34,999 nucleotides of DNA from Actinomycetota bacterium (lineage in GTDB: Bacteria; Actinomycetota; Acidimicrobiia; IMCC26256; VFJJ01), in the NCBI GenBank assembly GCA_009886115.1, contig VFJJ01000220.1:1-34999 (forward strand). The letters run 5' to 3'. Numbering within the stretch: position 1 is the stretch's first letter; every line of letters starts with the position of its first letter. The notes beneath the pieces were generated by a model that worked only from the letters and a program-made list of their open reading frames with translations, searched no databases and had not been told where the DNA came from. Shown here in pieces: positions 268 to 11,527 of this stretch. Both the position numbers and the translations under genes were made by a program.

Positions 268-675
268 TCAGGGAACGAGGTCGAACGCGTCGACGTGAGA
301 GGGGCGTACGACGGCGAAGTCCCGTCGGTTGAGCGTGGCGATGGTCGTGAGACCGAGGCGTTCGGCGACGGCCACGACCGAGGCGTCAACCAGACCGAGC
401 CGCATGTCGTGATAGATCCTGAGCAGCTCCGCACAGCGGGCCCAATCCCCGCTGGTGAGGTCGACGACCACCAGCTCGCCGTCGGCGATCGAGGAGACGA
501 AGGCGGCTTCGGCGCGGGGTCCGAGGCGAGACTCGATCATCCAGGCGGTCTCGATCGCTACAGGTGCACTCAACGCGAGGTCGGTCCGTTCATCGAGCAA
601 CGCTGCGCATCGGTCATGCTCCGGCGTCGAGATGTCGGCCCCGGCGAGCAACACGTTCGTGTCGACCAGCAGCAC
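268..675 (-). CDS. vapC: PIN-domain ribonuclease toxin (VapC family)
   Basis: GTG start, LLVDTNVLLA N-terminal motif, E of AIETAW, LGLVDASVVAVAERL, TLNRRDF; 135 aa. Confidence 0.88.
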   Translation of the reverse strand: MLLVDTNVLLAGADISTPEHDRCAALLDERTDLALSAPVAIETAWMIESRLGPRAEAAFVSSIADGELVVVDLTSGDWARCAELLRIYHDMRLGLVDASVVAVAERLGLTTIATLNRRDFAVVRPSHVDAFDLVP

Positions 676-680
676 GCGGT

Positions 681-926
681 TCAGGCACCTTCGGCAAGCT
701 TCTTGGCGGCAAGCTCGGCTCGTTCGCGATCGATGTCCAACGGTTCGGTGCGTCCCGATGCGCCGATCCCGACGAAGCCCAATCGGTGTCGGCGTGCCTG
801 GCCTGCTGGCGCCGGGAGCGCGGCCGCGAGCTCGGCGATGAGCTCGTCCAGCGTGATCCCGCGCCGCCCAGCTTCGCTTTCGAGGCGGGCAAGAGCATCG
901 TCCGAGAGTTCGATCGTGACCGGCAT
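681..926 (-). CDS. Putative ribbon-helix-helix antitoxin (VapB-like)
   Basis: MPVTIELSDDALARLESEAGRRGITLDELIAE... LGFVGIGASG; 81 aa, directly upstream of the PIN gene. Confidence 0.8.
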   Translation of the reverse strand: MPVTIELSDDALARLESEAGRRGITLDELIAELAAALPAPAGQARRHRLGFVGIGASGRTEPLDIDRERAELAAKKLAEGA

Positions 927-1410
927 GCTCCAAGTGTAGGAATCTCCAGAGAACCCCGGCGTGGGTGCGCTGCAGTGAAGTGCTCGATCACCAAGTTCCC
1001 GCACTCTTCGGGGCCTCCACAGCCGACGGCGTCCTGATGGCCGTTCGAGCCGCGGGCGGCAACGTGAACCCGGCAACCATCGCCGCCTCGATGATCGCCC
1101 TCGCACAGGAACTCCTGACCACGCTCCAATGAGCGCAGTCGCGCCGTGACCACGAGGCGGGTCGACAAGCCGGGGTCGAGCGGACCCTTGTCCCCTGCCC
1201 GCTCGGCGTCGCGATGCTCGCTCCACACGGATCGGGCGTGCCCTCGCGTGTCGCCCAGTGCCCGTGCGTGTCTGCTCGACCCCTGCAACAGATTCTGCTC
1301 CTCAGAAGTGCTGAATGCGTTCCTTCGGCGGGGAATGGGCTCAGCGAAATCGTTTTTCTGGATCTGGTTCTGTCCGCCAGCGTTCAGCACAGTCCGTTGA
1401 GTACCGCCAC

Positions 1411-1708: not shown

Positions 1709-1729
1709 TCTGAACTGCTGAAACACCAG

Positions 1730-1801
1730 AGGCGGCGAGCGGAATTGAACCGCTGTAGAGGGTTTTGCAGACCCTTGCCTGAACCACTCGGCCACGCCGC
1801 C
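1730..1801 (-). tRNA. tRNA-Cys(GCA)
   Basis: Reverse complement GGCGGCG-TGGCCGAGTGGTTCAGGC-AAGGGT-CTGCAAA-ACCCT-CTAC-AGCGGTTCAATTCCGCT-CGCCGCC-T; acceptor, D, anticodon (GCA) and T arms present; CCA not encoded. Confidence 0.96.
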
Positions 1802-3817: not shown

Positions 3818-4591
3818 GTGCATCCTCTCGCCGCCGCCGTCGCTCAGAGCCCCGACACCGACGGAGTTGTGCTCCTGGCGCCGGCCGATGTGTTCGAGAC
3901 CCTGGCGGTGGTCGCCGAGTCGGGTCTCGACGTGCGCTGCGTGATGCTCGACCCTTGGTACAACAAGGGAGTCGGCGGTGTCACTGACGACGAGGAGTAC
4001 GACCGCTTCGTGCTCGACCTCCTCGCCGCGGCAGGCGCCATCGCCGATCACGTGTACCTGTGGGGCTTCCCCGAGATCATGGCCCGTTTCATGACCCGGT
4101 TCCCGGCTCCGCTGGAGCTCGTCGCCTGGCTCACCTGGTACTACAAGAACAACCCGTCGGTGATCAGGGGTTGGCGCTCGGCCCAGATGACCTGCCTGCA
4201 TCTGGGCCGCCCCGGGGCGCGCCTGTACCCCGAGCACTTCCTCAACGAGGCCCAACTGGCGCTCAAGGCCCAGGGCAAGCTCCGCTACATGCCCGGTCCG
4301 CCCAGCGTCATCGAGGCCGCCTTGCTCGTGGGCTTCATCGGCCGGGCCGAGCAGACGGGCCACCCGGCGCAAAAGCCCGTCAACGCGATCGAGCCGCTGC
4401 TGAAGATGGTGCTGGCGCCCGGCGAGCTCGTCGTCGACCCCATGTGCGGCTCGGGGACGACCGGCGCGGCGGCTCGGGCCCTGGGCGCCACGGCGATCCT
4501 GGCCGACGGCTCGGCCGAGTACACCGCGCTCGTCGAGAACCGTCTCGGCGTGCAGGCCATCACGCTCGACCCGCCGCGACTCCTGGGCTGA
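3818..4591 (+). CDS. Orphan N6A/N4C DNA methyltransferase, beta class
   Basis: Catalytic motif IV DPWY near the N-terminus, HPAQKP, SAM-binding VVDPMCGSGTT near the C-terminus. Confidence 0.85.
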   Translation: MHPLAAAVAQSPDTDGVVLLAPADVFETLAVVAESGLDVRCVMLDPWYNKGVGGVTDDEEYDRFVLDLLAAAGAIADHVYLWGFPEIMARFMTRFPAPLELVAWLTWYYKNNPSVIRGWRSAQMTCLHLGRPGARLYPEHFLNEAQLALKAQGKLRYMPGPPSVIEAALLVGFIGRAEQTGHPAQKPVNAIEPLLKMVLAPGELVVDPMCGSGTTGAAARALGATAILADGSAEYTALVENRLGVQAITLDPPRLLG

Positions 4592-4600
4592 GCGCCACGT

Positions 4601-5496
4601 TCATCTCGTCGGGCTCAACGCCGGAGCCGCAGCCGGAGCCCGAGCTCGGCCCACCCGGCCCCGCACCAGGCCTGTCGTCCGCAGACGGCTGGAAGCGATC
4701 GCGCCGCGAATCCCTTGGGTCGCGACGGCAGCGACGAGGCACAAGGTGCCAGCCAGGAGGAAGCTCAGCCGGTAGCTGCCGGTCCAGCCGTGGCTCACAC
4801 CGGCAAACCAGGCGATGGCGGCAGCCCCGATCTGATGGCTGGCGAAGACCCATCCGAACACCACAGAACCGCGATCGGGGCCGAAGCACTCGTTGCACAA
4901 CGCGACCGTGGGTGGGACCGACACCCACCGCCATCCCACCGTATCGGCGAGATGGCCGGCAGCGGGAGGAACACGATCTGCCCGGTGGCCGTCGCCGCCG
5001 TCAACACGCCGATGACGAGGCCCCGACGGGCCACGAACCAGCGGGTGGCGACCGTGGCCGCGAGCACCGTGGCCAGACAGCCCGAGCCCGTCCCCACGAC
5101 GACACCCCAGAGCACGATGAGCTGCCAGACCGAGGTCATGGTCGTCGTGAGCGCGGCACCGGCCGAGATGACGACCAGCGCGCTCAGCACGACCGGCCGC
5201 AGACCGAACCGGTTCATGAGGGCGGCTGCGAACGGCCCGACGAGGCCGAAGAGGACGAGGTTCACCGAGATGGCCGCCGAGATCCACCCGCGGCTCCAGC
5301 CGAAGTCGTCTTCGAGGGGCTCGATCAGGACGCCCGGCGTGGCTCGGAAGCCGGCCGCTCCCAGGAGCGTCACGAACGTGACGGCGGCGACGATCCAGGC
5401 GTCGTGGAGGCGGGGCCGAGACGCTGGGCTCGTCGAGGTGGAGCTGGCGGGGACCGGCCCCGTTTCGACACGTCGAGCGGCGGCATCACCGTCCAC
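4601..5496 (-). pseudogene. MFS transporter pseudogene (frameshift plus large internal deletion)
   Basis: N-half TM1-5 in ORF 4795-5496; frame change near 4960; GWRWVS is joined directly to VPPTVALC...GWVFASHQIGAA (last TMs), so the middle TMs are missing. Confidence 0.82.
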
Positions 5497-5591
5497 CGTA
5501 TTCGCACGACCACCGGTGACCCGGTCGGAAATCCGGTCGGGCGACGACCACGGATCGACTCCGACCGCGCCGATCGGCTAGCAACGGGCCC

Positions 5592-6560
5592 ATGACCTCC
5601 TCCCCCGACGGCACCGGTACGGCGCTCGACCCCTCCGGGGTGGCCGCCAACGGCGCCGGGTCGAACCGGTTCCGCCACGATCTGGCCGAGATCCGCCGGA
5701 GGGTCGCGGCCCGGGTCGTGGGGCGCGACCACGAGCTCAAGGTGCTGCTCGCAGCCATCGCCGCGGGACGTGACCTGCTGCTGGAAGGCCCGCCGGGGAC
5801 GAGCAAGAGCACGCTGCTCAGAGAGGTCACCCGCGAGTTCGGGGTCCCGCTGGTGTTCGTCGAGGGCAACGCCGAGCTCACCACGGCCAAGCTGGTGGGC
5901 CACCACAACCCGGCCCGGGTGCTGCGCGACGACTTCTCGGCCGACACGTTCGTCCCCGGTCCCCTCGTCGAGGCGATGCGCCGGGGCGGCTTCCTCTACG
6001 TGGAGGAGATCAACCGGGCCCCCGAGGACACGCTCAACGCCCTGCTCACTGCCATCGCCGAGCGCGAGATCACCGTCCCGCGCGTCGGTCACGTGAAGGC
6101 GGCCGACGGGTTCCGGGTCGTGGCCTCGATGAACCCGTTCGACAACGTGGGCACGTCGCGGATCTCCTCGTCGGTCCACGATCGGCTGTGCCGCATCCCG
6201 GTCGGCTACCAGAGCGCCGACGAGGAGATCGACATCGTTGCGCTCCGCACGGCCGTCGACCACGACCGCTTGGCCGCCGACGCCGTGGCCCTCACCCGGG
6301 CGACGAGGTTCCATCCCGAGATCCGCCAGGGCTCGTCGGTACGCGGCGCGATCGACCTGGTGCTCGTCGCCGAGCAGCTCCTGGCTCTTGAGGGCACCGA
6401 CGGCGCCCCGTACGAGGACGTGGTGCGCGACGCCGTGATGGTGTCGCTCTCGGGGCGCATCCACCTCGACGAGACCAGCGAATCATCGCCCGAACGGGTG
6501 CTCACGGAGATCTGGGAGAACCACTTCGTGCTCGGCCCCCGGCGAGCCAAGCCCGGCTGA
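5592..6560 (+). CDS. MoxR-family AAA+ ATPase
   Basis: VVGRDHELK, Walker A variant LEGPPGTSKST, Walker B variant LYVEEINRA, ASMNP, sensor-2 GSSVRGAIDL; ends ...RRAKPG-UGA. Confidence 0.92.
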   Translation: MTSSPDGTGTALDPSGVAANGAGSNRFRHDLAEIRRRVAARVVGRDHELKVLLAAIAAGRDLLLEGPPGTSKSTLLREVTREFGVPLVFVEGNAELTTAKLVGHHNPARVLRDDFSADTFVPGPLVEAMRRGGFLYVEEINRAPEDTLNALLTAIAEREITVPRVGHVKAADGFRVVASMNPFDNVGTSRISSSVHDRLCRIPVGYQSADEEIDIVALRTAVDHDRLAADAVALTRATRFHPEIRQGSSVRGAIDLVLVAEQLLALEGTDGAPYEDVVRDAVMVSLSGRIHLDETSESSPERVLTEIWENHFVLGPRRAKPG

Positions 6561-7559
6561 AGAGCTCTCGATCTCACGCCGGCGATCGAGCTCCCCAGCG
6601 AGGATGCCCGGATCGACGGCCGGGGCCCGCTCAAGCGCAAGCCCAAGCAGCTCGACACCGCTCCCGCCTTGTACGCCAAGGGCGGGAGCCTGGCCCAGGT
6701 CGTCGTGCCGCCCGAGGGCGAGGAGCCGGGTGGGCCCGCCGGTGGCGCACCGCCGCCCACCACGTCCAAGACCATGACGACCGCCGAGATCGGCGAGAGC
6801 CGCCGGCTGGACGAGGTGCTCGAGGACACCCCGCCCGACCCCGAGGTGCGCAAGGCCGTCCAGCAGATCGCGTCGCGGCTTGCGGTGCGTCGCTCGGCCG
6901 CGGCGCGCGACGCCGAGCGGGGCCCTGGGCGCCCCCGAAGCCTCCCGTACCAGGGCGATGCCGACGAGATCGACATCGACGCCACGCTGGAGGTTCTCAC
7001 CGAGCGCCCGGTGCCCGAGGACTCCGACATCATCGTGCGCACCCGGGTACGGCCCCGTCGGGCCGTGGCCTTGATCGTCGACGTGTCGGGCTCGATGAAG
7101 GGCGAGAAGGCCCGGGTGGCCGCGGCCACCGTGGGCGCCTTGGCGGGCGAGTTGGTCGACGAGGAGCTCACCGTGGTCGCCTTTTGGAAGGACTGCGCGA
7201 TGCTCACGGTTCCCGGGCTGCGGGTCCGGGCGTCGCAGGTGCTCGACGACCTGCTGCACCTGCCCACCAAGGGGCTCACGAACGTGAACGTGGGCCTGGC
7301 GGTGGCAGCCCGCGAGCTGGCCCGATCACGGTGTCGTGAACGGGTTGCCGTGCTCTTGTCGGACTGTGTGCACAACGCCGGCCCTGATCCCCGTGACGCT
7401 GCCGCTCGGCTGCCCCGCCTGCACGTGATGCTCCAGATCGACGGTGAGCACGACGCCTGGCTCGGCGCCGAGCTGGCCCGCATCGGCGGCGGTCGCCTGG
7501 CCCCCGTCCGCAGCGCCCGTCAGGTCGCCCCGGCACTCAACCGACTCCTGGCGCCCTAG
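6561..7559 (+). CDS. VWA (MIDAS) domain protein, CoxE/ChlD-like; open in frame from the MoxR UGA
   Basis: Pro/Glu-rich linker, DEIDIDATLE, MIDAS DVSGS, GLTN, LSDC; no stop from 6561 to 7557; first possible own start is TTG 6669 without a recognisable RBS. Confidence 0.85.
   Translation, partial: RALDLTPAIELPSEDARIDGRGPLKRKPKQLDTAPALYAKGGSLAQVVVPPEGEEPGGPAGGAPPPTTSKTMTTAEIGESRRLDEVLEDTPPDPEVRKAVQQIASRLAVRRSAAARDAERGPGRPRSLPYQGDADEIDIDATLEVLTERPVPEDSDIIVRTRVRPRRAVALIVDVSGSMKGEKARVAAATVGALAGELVDEELTVVAFWKDCAMLTVPGLRVRASQVLDDLLHLPTKGLTNVNVGLAVAARELARSRCRERVAVLLSDCVHNAGPDPRDAAARLPRLHVMLQIDGEHDAWLGAELARIGGGRLAPVRSARQVAPALNRLLAP
6562..6593 (+). promoter_or_regulatory. Stem-loop immediately 3' of the in-frame UGA (candidate readthrough or SECIS-like element)
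   Basis: GAGC(TC)TCGATC-TCACGCCGGC-GATCGAGCTC: 10 Watson-Crick pairs with a 2-nt bulge, starting at the second base after UGA. Confidence 0.55.
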
Positions 7560-7570
7560 CACCAAACGGC

Positions 7571-7620
7571 CCAACTGTCAGCGTGGCGGGCCGTATCCGG
7601 ACCCTCACGCTGACAGTTGG
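7571..7620. repeat. REP-like palindrome
   Basis: Perfect 15-bp inverted repeat CCAACTGTCAGCGTG / CACGCTGACAGTTGG with a 20-nt spacer. Confidence 0.7.
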
Positions 7621-7679
7621 AGGATGGGGAGGCCCGGGGTAGGGTGCGCCGCCGCTGCGTCTCCGCGAAAGGTCCCGCC

Positions 7680-8801
7680 ATGCCGCTCAGCCCGTTCGAC
7701 GAGTTCCTCGCCCACCAGACGTCGGAGACGTTCGACCATGTGGGCACGTCAGACCGCAACTTCTACGACCGCTACTACTTCAACATGCACTCGTCGAGCG
7801 ACGAGATCTTCGTCATCACCGGCCTGGGCCAGTACCCGAACCTGGGGGTGACCGACGCCTTCATCACGGTGTCGTTGGGCCACGAGCAGTTCACGGTGCG
7901 GTCGTCGCGCGAGCTGGGCTCCGACCGGCTCGACACCTCGGTGGGGCCGCTGTCGGTCGAGGTGATCACGGGTCTCGAACGTCTGCGGGTGCGGTGCGCG
8001 CCCAACGAGTGGGGCCTCGAGGCCGATCTCACGTTCACCGGGAGCGTCCCCGCCCTGGAGGAACCCAAGACCTTCGTCCGCCAGTACGGCCGCATCATCC
8101 AGGACGTGAGCCGCTACGCCCAGGTCGGCGTGTGGGAAGGCCGCATCAGCGTGGCCGGACGTACCTTCGAGGTGACTCCCGACCTGTGGAAGGGCGCCCG
8201 CGACCGGTCGTGGGGTGTGCGCCCCGTCGGCGAACGGGAGGCCCCGGGCATCCGGGCCCGTCAGCAGGTCGACGGCTACGGATTCCGGCACGACTGGATC
8301 CCGATGCAGTTCGACGACCACATGATCAAGGTCCAGATCGACCAGGACGGCGACGGGCACCGCCATCTCGAAGAGGCCGCCCGGGTCTGGAACCTGGGCT
8401 CGAACCGGGCGCCGGAGCACCTCGGCCGGCCCGAGGTCGACGTCGAGTACCTCTCGGGCACGCGCGAGATGCGGAACGCGACCGTGCGTACGTCGGCCCC
8501 CGACGGCACGCCCATCGTCGTGAAGAACACCCCGCTGCGCACCCTGTACCTGGCGGCCGGGTCGGGCTACGTGAACGACGGCACCTGGGGTCACGGCGTG
8601 TACCAGGGCGCCCTCAAGGTCGAGGGCCTCACCCACGACCTGAGCGACCCCGAGGTCCGTCGGAGTTACGCCATCCTCAACGAGACCTTGTGTCGCTTCG
8701 AGATGGCCACCGGCGAGGTCGGCTACGGAATGCACGAGAACATGCTCATGGGCGTCTACAAGCCGACAGGCTTCCTGACCCCCGAAACCGTCGCTCCCTA
8801 A
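7680..8801 (+). CDS. Conserved actinobacterial protein with RDRSWG motif (tocopherol-cyclase/AttH-like fold inferred)
   Basis: GAAAGG RBS; DEFLAHQ..DRNFYDRYYFN, GLGQYPNLGV, RDRSWGVRPVGE, GYGMHE. Confidence 0.75.
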   Translation: MPLSPFDEFLAHQTSETFDHVGTSDRNFYDRYYFNMHSSSDEIFVITGLGQYPNLGVTDAFITVSLGHEQFTVRSSRELGSDRLDTSVGPLSVEVITGLERLRVRCAPNEWGLEADLTFTGSVPALEEPKTFVRQYGRIIQDVSRYAQVGVWEGRISVAGRTFEVTPDLWKGARDRSWGVRPVGEREAPGIRARQQVDGYGFRHDWIPMQFDDHMIKVQIDQDGDGHRHLEEAARVWNLGSNRAPEHLGRPEVDVEYLSGTREMRNATVRTSAPDGTPIVVKNTPLRTLYLAAGSGYVNDGTWGHGVYQGALKVEGLTHDLSDPEVRRSYAILNETLCRFEMATGEVGYGMHENMLMGVYKPTGFLTPETVAP

Positions 8802-8838: not shown

Positions 8839-9084
8839 TCAAACGCTGTTGTGTGACGTTGTTGTCTTTGGCTCATCACCCGGCATGAGCGAGATGGCCC
8901 GCTCGGGACAGCGCAACACGGCGGTGCGCACCGCTACCTCGAGCGCGGCGGGCACGTCCTCGATCTGGAGGACGGCGAAGCCCTGCTCGTCGAAGGCGAA
9001 CACGTCGGGCGCGGCCATGGCGCACTGGCCGTGGCCCTGGCAGCGCCCGGTGTCGAGCTGGACGCGCGTCAAGGGACCCGTCAC
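8839..9084 (-). CDS. [3Fe-4S]-type ferredoxin
   Basis: CQGHGQCAMAAPDVF...CPERAI; GTG start overlaps the P450 stop (GTGA). Confidence 0.9.
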   Translation of the reverse strand: MTGPLTRVQLDTGRCQGHGQCAMAAPDVFAFDEQGFAVLQIEDVPAALEVAVRTAVLRCPERAISLMPGDEPKTTTSHNSV

Positions 9085-10370
9085 CCCTTGACCAGAGGCA
9101 GCGCGGAGAGGCCCTTCATCCCACCGAACGCCTCGGCCCGACGCTCGGGATCTGGGTGGTAGTCGGGAAGCTTGCGGTGGAAGACCTGCAATGCGATTCG
9201 CACCTCTCGTCGGGCCAGGTGGATCCCGATGCACCGGTGCGGTCCGAGCCCGAAACCCAGATGGCGGTTGGGCGTGCGGTCGAACACGAGCTCGTTGGGT
9301 TCGGCGAACTCGCTGGCGTCGCGGTTGGCAGCCATCGTGGGGCACAGCACCTGTGAGCCGTGCGCGAACTCGGTGCCGTGGAAGGTGACGTCCTGGGTCA
9401 CCCGCCGGGGTAGCAGCACGATGGCGTGATAGCGGATGAGCTCTTCGACGGCCGGCCCGACCCGCTCGGGGTCGTCCATCAGCTCGATGAACTCCCGACG
9501 CTTCCCGGGGTTCGCGGCGAACGTCTGCACGATCAGGCCCAGCGCCGAGGCCACCGTGTCGAGACCGGCCATGTAGAAGAGGAAGAGCGTGTCCTCGAGC
9601 TCCTCCTGGGTGAGCGGTCGCTCGCCTTCGTAGGAAGCGGCGAGGAGCTTGGTGATCATGTCGTCGGTCGGCTCGGCGCGGCGGCGGTCGATGAGACCGC
9701 CCAGGTAGGCGTAGATGCGCTGGCCGACCGTGGACCGGACGGCGAGCTCCTCCTCGGGCGTGAGGTGCGAACCCGACACCTCGTGGCCGAGCTCACGGGC
9801 CATCTCCGCGGCGAGCTCGAAGCCCCGCACGTGCCCGTCGGCGCAGTGCATCAACGTGTTCTTCCAGTTCATGATCTGCTGGTAGTCGTCGAGCGGGAAT
9901 CCGGCGAGCTGGCAGAAGATGACCGTCGGGAACGGGTCGGCGAACGCGGCCACGAAGTCGAAGTCGTCGCCCTGGTCGAGCATCGTGTCGACGAGCTCCT
10001 CGGCGAACTTCTCGAGGTGCGGCTCGAGATGGCGCATCTCGTCGACGGTGAACCACGGGTTCATGATCCGCCGGTACGCGCTGTGCGCCGGCGGGTCGAT
10101 GGCCTGCGGTATCCACGGCCGCACCGGGTACACGTTCGACTGGTTCGAGAAGCTGGCGTGGTCTTGGAGGAAGTCGCACGACTGGTCGTAACGGGTGAGC
10201 ACCCACGATCCGGGCGCACCCATCGCCGTGATGGCCTCGGTCCGAGCGATCGGGAGCTCGGCCCGGAGGAGGTCGTAGACCTCGAATTCGCGCTCGAGGA
10301 ACGCGACGTCGTAGGGGTTGTACGCCGCGGCTGCAGCCTCGGCCAAGCTGCGTGCGTCCATGGTCGTCAT
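9081..10370 (-). CDS. Cytochrome P450 (CYP143-like by motif)
   Basis: AGLDTV I-helix, EELIR, heme motif FGLGPHRCIG; start MTTMDARS. Confidence 0.93.
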   Translation of the reverse strand: MTTMDARSLAEAAAAAYNPYDVAFLEREFEVYDLLRAELPIARTEAITAMGAPGSWVLTRYDQSCDFLQDHASFSNQSNVYPVRPWIPQAIDPPAHSAYRRIMNPWFTVDEMRHLEPHLEKFAEELVDTMLDQGDDFDFVAAFADPFPTVIFCQLAGFPLDDYQQIMNWKNTLMHCADGHVRGFELAAEMARELGHEVSGSHLTPEEELAVRSTVGQRIYAYLGGLIDRRRAEPTDDMITKLLAASYEGERPLTQEELEDTLFLFYMAGLDTVASALGLIVQTFAANPGKRREFIELMDDPERVGPAVEELIRYHAIVLLPRRVTQDVTFHGTEFAHGSQVLCPTMAANRDASEFAEPNELVFDRTPNRHLGFGLGPHRCIGIHLARREVRIALQVFHRKLPDYHPDPERRAEAFGGMKGLSALPLVKG

Positions 10371-10465
10371 CGAGCCCCCTTGTCGCCGATCTCGTCGACC
10401 GGCAAAGTACCCGACACCATCTCGACGGGGAAAGGCCGCCTCGTTCGCGTTGTTCCCCGTGAGGC

Positions 10466-11527
10466 TCAGCGGGTGGAGCGCAAGGCGGTGAGCATCTTGA
10501 CGAAGTGCTCGGCCCGCCAGCCATCCTGATCTTCGCCCCAGCCGATCTGGCCGTCGTACTCCCAACGCATCAAGGCGTTGGCGCCCGACGCGTGCTCGCA
10601 CATGTGACTGAGCGCAAACCCTTCGGCCTCCATCGTCCGCCCGGTCACGTCGACGAGCGCGACCTCCATGTGGGCGCTCCAGCCCGTGTTCGGGTCGCGG
10701 AAGTTCCGCATCCGGCTCCTCGACGGGTCGAGCCGCTCGAACACCCCGTCCTTGAGCAACCAGCCCACGTTCAACGGCGACCATCCGGCAGCGTCGCCGT
10801 CCTGCGGACGCACGAAGCTCAAGAAGCCCGTCCGGGCGCCGGTGTGGCCGAAGATGTACTGGATGCGGCCACGGCCCCGCTCGCGTTCGATCTCGCGCCA
10901 GCGAGGACCCCCCGGATGGGCCACCCGGTGCTCGCCCCGCAGGTGCTCGGGCTTGCGACTCTGGGCGTGATGCCCACCGCGTGGCCCCCAGGTGCGATCA
11001 CGCACCGAATGACAGTCGATCGCGATGCGCTCGCCGTGCAACACCAACTCGCCGGTGACGTGCCCGAGCTGGTCGAGATGCGGGTTGTGCATGATCGGCG
11101 CCTGTCCGGGCGTGAACCGGTGGGGCGGATGGACGCTCCGGTGCTCAAGCTCGATCGCGAAGTCGGCCTCCGCGTCGCGGTACGCCACGCGGTAGTGCAT
11201 CAGCGGCTCGAGCATCTTCACGCTGAAGCCACCCGCCGGGAACGTGATGTCGCGCAGATCGGGGTCGGGCGGCATCGGCACGTCGGGCACGATCTTGTAG
11301 TACGCCAAGCGGCCCGGATCGGCACCTCGGGGGTCCCACACGAACACCCGCCACGTGACCTCGTGACGGTTGCTGTGGTAGCCGGCATGGAGCCACGCGC
11401 CGATGCGGCGCTCGGGGATGTTCAACGACCACCACGTGGTCTCGAGCTCGAACGGATCGTCCGACACGGCATGGTAGGTGTCGTCGTCGGGGACGAACGG
11501 CGTGTCCTCGGTCACCGGCTTCGGCAT
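10466..11527 (-). CDS. Conserved protein with RDRTWG motif (same broad superfamily as 7680-8801)
   Basis: GAAGGGGA RBS; ETTWWSLNIPER, HLDQLGHVTGEL, RDRTWGPR, GWGEDQD. Confidence 0.72.
   Translation of the reverse strand: MPKPVTEDTPFVPDDDTYHAVSDDPFELETTWWSLNIPERRIGAWLHAGYHSNRHEVTWRVFVWDPRGADPGRLAYYKIVPDVPMPPDPDLRDITFPAGGFSVKMLEPLMHYRVAYRDAEADFAIELEHRSVHPPHRFTPGQAPIMHNPHLDQLGHVTGELVLHGERIAIDCHSVRDRTWGPRGGHHAQSRKPEHLRGEHRVAHPGGPRWREIERERGRGRIQYIFGHTGARTGFLSFVRPQDGDAAGWSPLNVGWLLKDGVFERLDPSRSRMRNFRDPNTGWSAHMEVALVDVTGRTMEAEGFALSHMCEHASGANALMRWEYDGQIGWGEDQDGWRAEHFVKMLTALRSTR

Follow-up and report, generated by a model that had tools for sequence, protein, structure and literature searches.

The closest described relatives of the locus reported here pair an AAA+ ATPase of the MoxR class with a protein that contains a VWA (von Willebrand factor A) domain. 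For NorQD, excerpts of the published account describe a finger of the VWA domain that enters the pore of the NorQ hexamer (PMC13036017). For CbbQO, the stoichiometry CbbQ6O1 was measured and, in the excerpted text, likened to Rea1/midasin with its six AAA modules and one VWA domain (PMC4660213). A further related arrangement is found in chlD genes, the Mg/Co-chelatase medium-subunit genes studied by Antonov and co-workers, which according to excerpts of two reports give rise to a short AAA+ and a long AAA-VWA subunit by programmed frameshifting, with A_AAA_AAR motifs, AT-rich slippery sites and downstream structures at the shift sites (PMC9227772, PMC5009743). The locus studied in this work is located at positions 5592–7559 of the forward strand of a 34,999-nt stretch of contig VFJJ01000220.1 (assembly GCA_009886115.1, an Actinomycetota bacterium of the class Acidimicrobiia). 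This whole stretch is referred to as the window. At this locus an AAA+ ATPase and a VWA domain are encoded in one reading frame that is divided by a single UGA codon. Comparison of related sequences makes it probable that 5592–7559 is one expression unit, in which context-driven programmed readthrough of the UGA yields the AAA protein together with a minority AAA-VWA protein.

The ATG at 5592 opens an open reading frame (ORF) of 322 codons (5592–6557), which encodes the ATPase and is closed by TGA at 6558–6560. Read in a single frame, the region 5592–7559 gives ...FVLGPRRAKPG-stop-RALDLTPAIELPSEDARIDGRGPLKRKPKQLDTAPALYAKGG..., and the next stop, which ends the long frame, is reached only at TAG 7557–7559. 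Translation thus reproduces the original prediction, which described the two ORFs as sharing a frame with the UGA as sole stop until 7557. The earliest canonical in-frame start past the TGA is TTG 6669 (codon 37). The remainder of the VWA ORF, 6669–7556, corresponds to 296 amino acids from this TTG and contains the VWA domain at approximately 7065–7433. The 36 codons without a canonical start that lie between the TGA and TTG 6669 (6561–6668) encode a linker peptide, RALDLTPAIELP..., followed by the motif PLKRKPKQLD, whose RKPKQL part is located at 6636–6653. The G+C contents at the first, second and third codon positions (GC1/2/3) of these 36 codons are 0.75/0.53/0.86, those of the AAA ORF are 0.72/0.48/0.93 and those of the VWA ORF 0.78/0.52/0.90. 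The GC3 phase continues without interruption from 5592 to 7559, across the TGA. The claims of coding-like GC3 behind the UGA and of downstream TTG, GTG and ATG codons without a ribosome-binding site were both borne out: a Shine-Dalgarno-like 4-mer at −18 to −4 precedes none of the six canonical in-frame starts in 6561–6900. Of the two CTG codons in the same interval one, CTG 6690, has such a 4-mer (AAGG) upstream. TGA closes eight of the nine other Pfam-supported ORFs in the window, which argues that the genetic code is not reassigned. Seen in one genome, the in-frame TGA is near chance and not beyond it, because a frame is shared in one case out of three and 473 of the 936 stop-to-stop intervals in the window, which has a G+C content of 70%, are at least 36 codons long. 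The weight of the argument comes from the comparative data.

The identity of the two halves was established from domain, motif and fold comparisons. The AAA ORF matches Pfam AAA_5 with 90.1 bits (cut-off 22, E 1.6e-25); AAA_lid_2 is matched with 17.2 bits, which is under its cut-off of 22.7. The Walker A motif GPPGTSKS comprises residues 66–73, the Walker B-like motif LYVEEI residues 135–140, and the lid helix ends near residue 314. The residues G66, P67, P68, G69, K72, E138 and E139 are invariant in an alignment of 45 sequences (A4). In a sequence search of the PDB with the AAA part, NorQ (E 1.3e-14) and CbbQ (E 5.9e-12) are the nearest solved single-domain relatives. The top match overall is midasin (E 2e-41 over four stretches), which heads the list because four of its AAA modules match. 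The second part matches Pfam VWA_2 with 30.7 bits (cut-off 27), and VWA_CoxE is also matched. Its MIDAS (metal ion-dependent adhesion site) is complete: D174, V175, S176, G177, S178, T240 and D268 are invariant in alignment A1 (25 sequences) and in the same columns of A4. The DxSxS motif (DVSGS) is encoded at 7080–7094, and the threonine and aspartate of the site follow further downstream.

The readthrough protein was modelled with TGA read as tryptophan and with an alignment of 44 fused homologues. The predicted structure has a mean predicted local distance difference test score (pLDDT) of 82, with a confident AAA part (residues ~30–315, mostly >90) and a confident VWA part (~400–655). The stop, right behind the AAA lid, is located in a low-confidence and presumably flexible linker, in which the blocks of residues 321–340 have pLDDT values of 49 and 42. 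The surroundings of RKPKQL are locally confident (pLDDT 86), with a short strand at 360–362. In a Foldseek search, the AAA part is matched by NorQ chains with template modelling scores (target) of 0.80–0.83 (9qh9_C, E 6.4e-19) and by CbbQ2 (6l1q_A) with 0.78, and the C-terminal part by the NorD VWA chains 9qh6_G and 9qhe_G. By its domains, its catalytic residues and its fold, the ATPase belongs to the MoxR class (CbbQ/NorQ, AAA_5 type). The locus encodes a NorQ/CbbQ-class MoxR protein plus a NorD-like VWA domain, and it is not a chlD gene. The likeness to ChlD drawn in the original prediction does not extend to identity, as the chelatase models score far under their cut-offs: TIGR02031 gives 18.5 bits against 499.55, and TIGR02442 gives 28.8 and 35 bits against 779.45. 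Assignment to ChlD/BchD or to a cobaltochelatase subunit was rejected on these grounds. GvpN, the best NCBIfam match, was rejected with 74.6 bits against an equivalog cut-off of 266.8. The basic motif P-L-R-R-K-P-K-x-L is nearly invariant across loci amid an otherwise variable linker. By analogy with the finger of NorD, it might contact the AAA ring.

The locus resembles NorQ-NorD and CbbQ-CbbO in the nearest solved structures of both halves and in the complete MIDAS of the VWA domain. In NorQD and CbbQO, however, each partner has its own gene and polypeptide, and large additional N-terminal regions are present in NorD and CbbO. Unlike them, the VWA part of the window lacks a conserved start, and a linker of ~100 residues connects it to the ATPase. 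The ratio of one VWA protein per AAA hexamer given in the excerpts on CbbQO is the one that a low readthrough rate would produce. Midasin/Rea1 is built from AAA_5-type modules, and its six AAA modules, linker and single MIDAS domain are comparable with a ring of five short products and one long product. Midasin is one giant polypeptide, whereas the ring considered here would use separate subunits of two lengths, and no link to ribosome assembly is implied. With the frameshifted chlD genes, as far as these are described in the excerpts, the family shares the principle that recoding where the AAA module ends lets one gene give a short AAA+ and a long AAA-linker-VWA product, and the type of recoding varies among taxa in both. 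It differs from them in that the halves in the window lie in one frame split by a UGA, with no frameshift, and in that the nearest folds are NorQ and CbbQ. No large chelatase subunit of the CobN/ChlH type was found among 20 flanking ORFs (~3 kb of flank per locus).

Homologues were collected with the conceptual fusion, carrying X at the stop, as the query. More than 100 of the 120 listed homologues are uninterrupted AAA-VWA fusions of 613–690 amino acids (87–96% query coverage, 40–58% identity) that hold both the AAA and the VWA Pfam domains; their named sources include Rubrobacter, Chloroflexota, Thermorudis and Microbacterium kribbense. Because these homologues are single-ORF fusions, the long AAA-VWA protein is a genuine and widespread architecture. 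Homologues with a sense codon at the junction, the search for which was suggested together with the original prediction, are thus common. In the 117 fused homologues that span the junction, the column of the stop is occupied by E (40), P (17), D (13), G (11), S (7), R (7), T (5), A (4), K (4), H (2), V (2), C (1) and Q (1), and by a gap in three.

A scan of species-representative genomes gave at least 80 loci, of which L001–L059 are true relatives; all locus counts given here are among the matches listed. Both halves are present at 59 loci, the window and 58 others, and the AAA part of L046 is missing at the end of its contig. In 45 of the 59 loci, the window included, the AAA ORF runs to ...PG (in a few loci ...PT) and TGA, and the VWA part follows in the same frame. 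The in-frame PG-UGA of the window is conserved in this first class. The class-1 loci originate from Microbacteriaceae, Micrococcaceae, Geodermatophilaceae, Nocardiaceae, Kribbellaceae, Propionibacteriaceae, Solirubrobacteraceae, Acidimicrobiia and metagenome-assembled genomes (MAGs), and the cultured genera among the UGA carriers are Microbacterium, Arthrobacter, Modestobacter, Blastococcus, Leucobacter, Agromyces, Cryobacterium and Granulicoccus. Many of the related loci are MAGs. Two of them, L014 (Burkholderia sp. MAG) and L031 (Candidatus Melainabacteria MAG), are of the 70% G+C type and are placed among actinobacterial rows; they are probably mis-binned contigs. In a large protein collection, 102 of the best 120 clusters of AAA homologues end exactly at ...PG. 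Seventeen of the other 18 end ten residues later (...LPNPI, ...VPDPT, ...VTEPP), like L027, where an in-frame TGA is found 10 codons further on (L027:2977), with T before it and A after it (TGA ACG). The stop of this type seems to have shifted without loss of the frame. The later-ending clusters include P0251, P0253, P0262, P0266, P0270, P0335 and P0336. Nine loci are of a frameshift type, which is described below. Among the remaining loci, L051 and L059 are continuous ORFs, and the distant L058 (Binataceae) consists of separate genes in different frames with a TAG stop. L053 is continuous at the junction, but its AAA and VWA parts are interrupted by three frame breaks at other places; it was set aside as a case of frame change at the lid position, since three breaks point to an assembly error or a pseudogene.

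The peptide encoded behind the stop is conserved as R-A/E-V-x-A-D-S-P ... P-L-R-R-K-P-K-x-L in the protein alignment A1. After the stop, the first and second codon positions are conserved and the third is variable; codon +7, for example, is TCG, TCC, TCA or TCT. The ratio of nonsynonymous to synonymous differences (pN/pS), calculated for 41 loci with L027 excluded, is 0.50 for codons +1 to +9 in frame, compared with 0.78 and 1.79 in the other two frames. The corresponding values are 0.52 for the last 12 codons before the stop and 0.45 for 12 codons around RKPKxL. Between the stop and RKPK, no indel breaks the frame in 44 of the 45 class-1 loci, those with a recognisable motif. These patterns indicate that the post-stop peptide is under purifying selection in the frame of the stop. 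Conservation of this peptide was among the checks proposed for the locus, and the in-frame pN/pS agrees with it.

The nucleotides around the stop are conserved as well. TGAAG is invariant in all 45 aligned class-1 sequences, and in the window the extended context is GGC-UGA-AGA-G (6555–6564). The +1 codon is AGA in 31 loci and AGG in 14, although in the rest of the same genes AGR accounts for 4.7% of 2827 arginine codons and AGA for 22 of them. The base preceding the stop (−1) is T in 30 loci, C in 7 (including the window), A in 6 and G in 2. Where glycine precedes the stop, its codon is GGT in 26 of 39 cases, against a background of 12.9%. Since the raw pairwise synonymous difference around the stop is ~0.5, fixed synonymous sites are not expected there without selection. 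Nominal probabilities for this codon bias are overstated, the loci being related. Taken from the alignment, the nucleotide context of the stop appears constrained beyond the needs of the protein, at synonymous sites. A conserved stop, coding selection downstream of it and a conserved context, which together characterize programmed readthrough other than selenocysteine insertion, are thus all found in the aligned loci.

We propose the following course of expression. Because TGA is an ordinary stop in the window organism, most ribosomes would terminate at UGA 6558–6560 and release the 322-aa ATPase. A minority would decode the UGA with a near-cognate tRNA and continue through the flexible linker, giving a 655-aa AAA-linker-VWA protein. 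tRNA-Trp is the usual UGA readthrough tRNA in bacteria. The signal would be the local (U/C)-UGA-AGR context, with no downstream hairpin involved. As the AAA module is common to both, the short and long products could co-assemble, and with identical AAA modules they might form a joint hexameric ring. The rate of readthrough would then set the number of VWA arms per ring; we estimate that a rate of approximately 10–20% would correspond to about one arm. The locus would thereby offer a genetic route to an arrangement of the CbbQ6O1/midasin type. That readthrough takes place, its efficiency, the tRNA used and the co-assembly are all inferred. Of the original proposal that one gene makes AAA subunits plus a minority 655-aa fusion, the recoded stop has gained comparative support, and the readthrough itself is still a deduction. 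A precedent is the coat gene of phage Q-beta, in which UGA readthrough gives A1, a C-terminally extended minor product that is required in addition to the major one. Readthrough of the Q-beta type relies on a near-cognate tRNA, occurs at low frequency and depends on local context rather than on structure. Q-beta coat is a phage gene, whereas the window family is chromosomal, extends across actinobacterial orders and has its own U-UGA-AGR context.

Several points weigh against programmed readthrough. It is deduced from conservation. TGA is the commonest stop in the carrier genomes, so its constancy adds little. The stop overlaps an NTG triplet in every class-1 locus (TTG 30, ATG 6, GTG 2, CTG 7 of 45), which has the look of a coupled start. 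A canonical in-frame start is present ahead of the RKPK motif in 25 of 44 loci, in seven of the 45 already at codon +3, which makes separate initiation possible for part of the family, and reinitiation at a non-canonical codon beside the stop is possible for the remaining loci. L038 and L044 carry an extra frame break later in the linker; they are perhaps assembly errors or decaying copies. These two loci and L053 are MAG contigs of one series, with isolate names beginning with MFD. In a tree of the AAA part, 41 of the 44 UGA rows fall into one subclade together with eight fused rows, so that the 45 loci do not represent independent cases. When a nonsense mutation splits a gene, the two parts are in frame from the beginning by descent, and the existence of fused-only relatives implies that a separate short ATPase is dispensable in places. 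An A at position +4 is not known to be the leakiest context measured in E. coli. In the excerpts of one E. coli study, U after the stop lowers readthrough (PMC5289835), which agrees with the non-U base found here and leaves the requirement for AGR unaccounted for.

These points bear most directly on an alternative in which the ATPase and the VWA protein are two genes, translation terminates and reinitiates within a few codons of the UGA, and the shared frame is a relic of an ancient nonsense split. We regard this as unlikely. The NTG that overlaps the stop is a canonical start triplet in 38 of the 45 loci, and MoxR proteins and their VWA partners are separate genes in NorQD and CbbQO. The frame of this NTG is, however, not that of the VWA part, and with a pN/pS of 1.79 it shows no coding constraint; the overlapping NTG-A was rejected as the VWA start for these reasons. 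In some loci the purine-rich AGR-G past the stop resembles a weak Shine-Dalgarno sequence, as in TGAAGGGAGG at L010, L018 and L025, and could serve the ATG, GTG or TTG present at codon +3 in a minority of loci. The Shine-Dalgarno-like bases are only 0–3 nt away from codon +3, and a spacing of 0–3 nt is too short for initiation. Furthermore, codon +3 is GTC in 29 of the 45 loci, two positions off AUG, and AGR-G as a Shine-Dalgarno sequence for this codon was rejected as well. The conserved peptide starts with the first codon after the stop, and the frameshift signal of the sister clade described below gives a fusion only.

An independent start of the VWA protein further downstream, at TTG 6669 in the window, would leave the 36 codons as an untranslated spacer. 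The ORF from this TTG contains the entire VWA domain, and gene callers assign varied downstream starts to the homologues. The positions of the first canonical start are not conserved among the loci, being spread from codon 3 to codon 103, and no Shine-Dalgarno-like motif precedes TTG 6669. Leaving aside one locus without a recognisable motif, 19 of 44 loci have their first canonical in-frame start past RKPKxL, and the spacer, this motif included, is conserved as protein. A separately initiated VWA protein thus fails to explain the conserved peptide in much of the family. The frame between stop and RKPK is also kept free of indels, L038 and L044 being broken only later. Taken together, this explanation is quite improbable.

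The original prediction further offered insertion of selenocysteine at the UGA, directed by a selenocysteine insertion sequence (SECIS) hairpin just downstream, and pointed to a stem-loop at 6562–6593. The in-frame UGA is followed 2 nt later by this stem-loop, which does form; it is neither significant nor conserved and lies outside the signal proposed here. The fold of 6545–6620 has a free energy of −27.2 kcal/mol, compared with a shuffle mean of −27.24 (z 0.01), and 90 of 200 shuffled sequences are at least as stable. The stem is lost already in the closest listed locus, L001. The covariation expected of a conserved hairpin was not found, RNAalifold returning no consensus pairs in 45 sequences over the 105 nt that surround and follow the stop. 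For 70 nt from position +10 in 42 loci, the mean z score of the minimum free energy is −0.26, with two of the 42 loci below −2. A hairpin or SECIS element as the stimulator of recoding was rejected on the basis of these results. Cysteine, which occupies the stop column in a single fused homologue of the 117, and the position of the site in a flexible linker likewise speak against selenocysteine, which was rejected because of this residue spectrum and because no structure is conserved. No tRNA-Sec is encoded in the 35-kb window, where tRNA-Cys is the only tRNA, and an Rfam scan of the window matched only a tRNA and nothing at the AAA-VWA region. Selenocysteine insertion is thus very improbable. 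A nonsense mutation, pseudogene or sequencing error unique to this assembly, a concern raised with the original prediction and conceivable in that fused homologues exist and a single-base change can create TGA, can practically be dismissed: the same TGA with its flanks is present in 44 other loci from many genera, isolate genomes included, the AAA clusters of the protein collection predominantly end at ...PG, and the catalytic and MIDAS residues are intact in both halves.

A different solution is found at nine of the 59 loci, which come from Pseudonocardia, Actinomycetospora, a Rhodococcus-labelled MAG and other MAGs. In these, the AAA frame reads ...WENHFFSS... and reaches a stop 12 to 19 codons on, and in the −1 frame the sequence is ...FFLLPRRAAPGPHRLNVDNAVALP..., the peptide that the fused homologues have at their junction. 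Each of the nine contains CAT_TTT_TT(C/T), with T_TTT_TTC as the correctly phased heptamer, in a genome of ~70% G+C. A 7-bp G+C hairpin, CCCGGCG...CGCCGGG, is located 6 nt past the slippery site in all nine, with no compensatory changes. A −1 shift at this site would give ...HFFLLPRRAAPGPHRLNVDNAVALP, again the junction peptide of the fusions. By their sequence, these loci carry a textbook −1 programmed frameshift signal, with the fusion as the sole possible product. A −1 slippery site followed by a hairpin is also what the excerpts on chlD describe, although the shift site of the Pseudonocardia-type loci is T_TTT_TTC and not A_AAA_AAR. Nested with the frameshift loci is P0123, a "fused" protein of 635 amino acids with the sequence ...EILGEPFFLL.... 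It is in the −1 frame already five codons ahead of the slippery site, which could reflect a one-base insertion that fixed the fusion, or else an annotation or assembly artefact. A further group of VWA homologues of 378–409 amino acids (P0007, P0009, P0010, P0012, P0014, P0016, P0022, P0025 and P0030) has a common start inside the AAA lid (…ERGY…/VLDAA…) and a sense codon (S, P or A) at the junction. These forms suggest a break or recoding site at a third position.

The relationships of these types were examined in a FastTree phylogeny of the AAA part with 141 rows, comprising 55 loci (window included) and 86 fused proteins of 600–700 amino acids. L015, L032, L034, L046 and L053, in which the AAA match is short, broken or absent, were excluded. 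A long-branched fused group of 17 rows, which also contains L058 and L059, lies to one side of the midpoint root. Local support is 100% for the clade of the frameshift loci, which includes three fused rows. The window groups with L001, an Acidimicrobiia MAG whose AAA part is 76% identical, at a position that the tree does not resolve, and L027 is placed on its own. With this midpoint rooting, the tree may be read as a fused ancestor with derived recoding and occasional reversion of UGA to a sense codon. Under this reading, the 45 UGA loci would go back to few independent origins.

A wider interpretation seems to us evenly balanced between true and false. According to it, U-UGA-AGR would be a dedicated, structure-independent readthrough signal that has long been kept in Actinomycetota, and recoding would have evolved at least three times in the family, by UGA after ...PG, by UGA ten codons later after ...NPI/EPP and by a −1 frameshift at T_TTT_TTC, each route dosing the VWA arm on a NorQ-like ring. 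If this is correct, readthrough and frameshifting are interchangeable answers to one stoichiometry problem. The resulting ring would be a bacterial, subunit-built counterpart of the six AAA modules and one MIDAS domain of midasin. The UGA, the −1 frameshift and the plain fusion constitute three natural "alleles" for probing recoding efficiency against subunit ratio. As a signal, U-UGA-AGR is simple, and dozens of genera, among them several in culture, conserve it. For annotation, the N-termini given for hundreds of "VWA domain-containing protein" entries in the family are probably wrong, and databases do not list the long product.

To our knowledge, programmed readthrough is well documented in viruses and eukaryotes and almost undocumented in bacterial chromosomal genes apart from selenocysteine. 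If the proposal is true, we know of no earlier case of programmed readthrough, other than for selenocysteine, that is conserved in a family of bacterial cellular genes. Full-text searches gave no account of the stop or of the slippery site of this family, the cluster lists of Antonov et al. 2013 and Antonov 2020 lying outside their coverage; for priority these may matter, most of all in the case of the frameshift clade. A search for MoxR together with frameshifting returned only unrelated papers, and no paper holding both MoxR and stop codon readthrough was among the matches listed. The terms "readthrough", "stop codon" and "MoxR" do not appear in PMC9227772, nor do "MoxR" and "von Willebrand" in PMC5009743.

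The AAA-VWA unit appears to be transcribed alone. The intergenic stretch 5497–5591 ahead of the AAA start presumably holds the promoter. It is bordered by a divergent 233-aa ORF (4795–5496, reverse strand) that matches only the N-terminal ~145 positions of major facilitator superfamily (MFS) models of NCBIfam (378-aa profile) and is possibly a truncated MFS transporter gene. An ORF at 4060–5595 (forward strand) overlaps the AAA start by ATGA; coupling to it was rejected, as its GC3 of 0.61 is non-coding and no family is matched. Behind the TAG, a near-perfect hairpin at 7571–7620 (forward strand) combines a 16-bp outer stem with an inner stem; its free energy is −45.4 kcal/mol (z −5.42), and none of 200 shuffled sequences is as stable. 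It is terminator-like, with no T run, and may act in termination or in processing; the AAA-VWA transcription unit probably has its 3′ end here. The gene at 7617–8801 (forward strand), whose start overlaps the 3′ arm of the hairpin, belongs to the Rv3169 family (NCBIfam NF053593, E 1.5e-124). None of the ten flanking ORFs of the window recurs at the other loci. Clustering of flanking ORFs was swamped by spurious high-G+C ORFs, and the largest real-looking cluster covers 16 loci. Elsewhere in the window, a PIN-domain ORF is located at 268–933 (reverse strand), the tRNA-Cys gene at 1729–1801 (reverse strand) and, at 3818–4591 (forward strand), an ORF whose match to a DNA methylase model is confined to the C-terminal third of the model. 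A ferredoxin and cytochrome P450 pair is encoded at 8839–10784 on the reverse strand.

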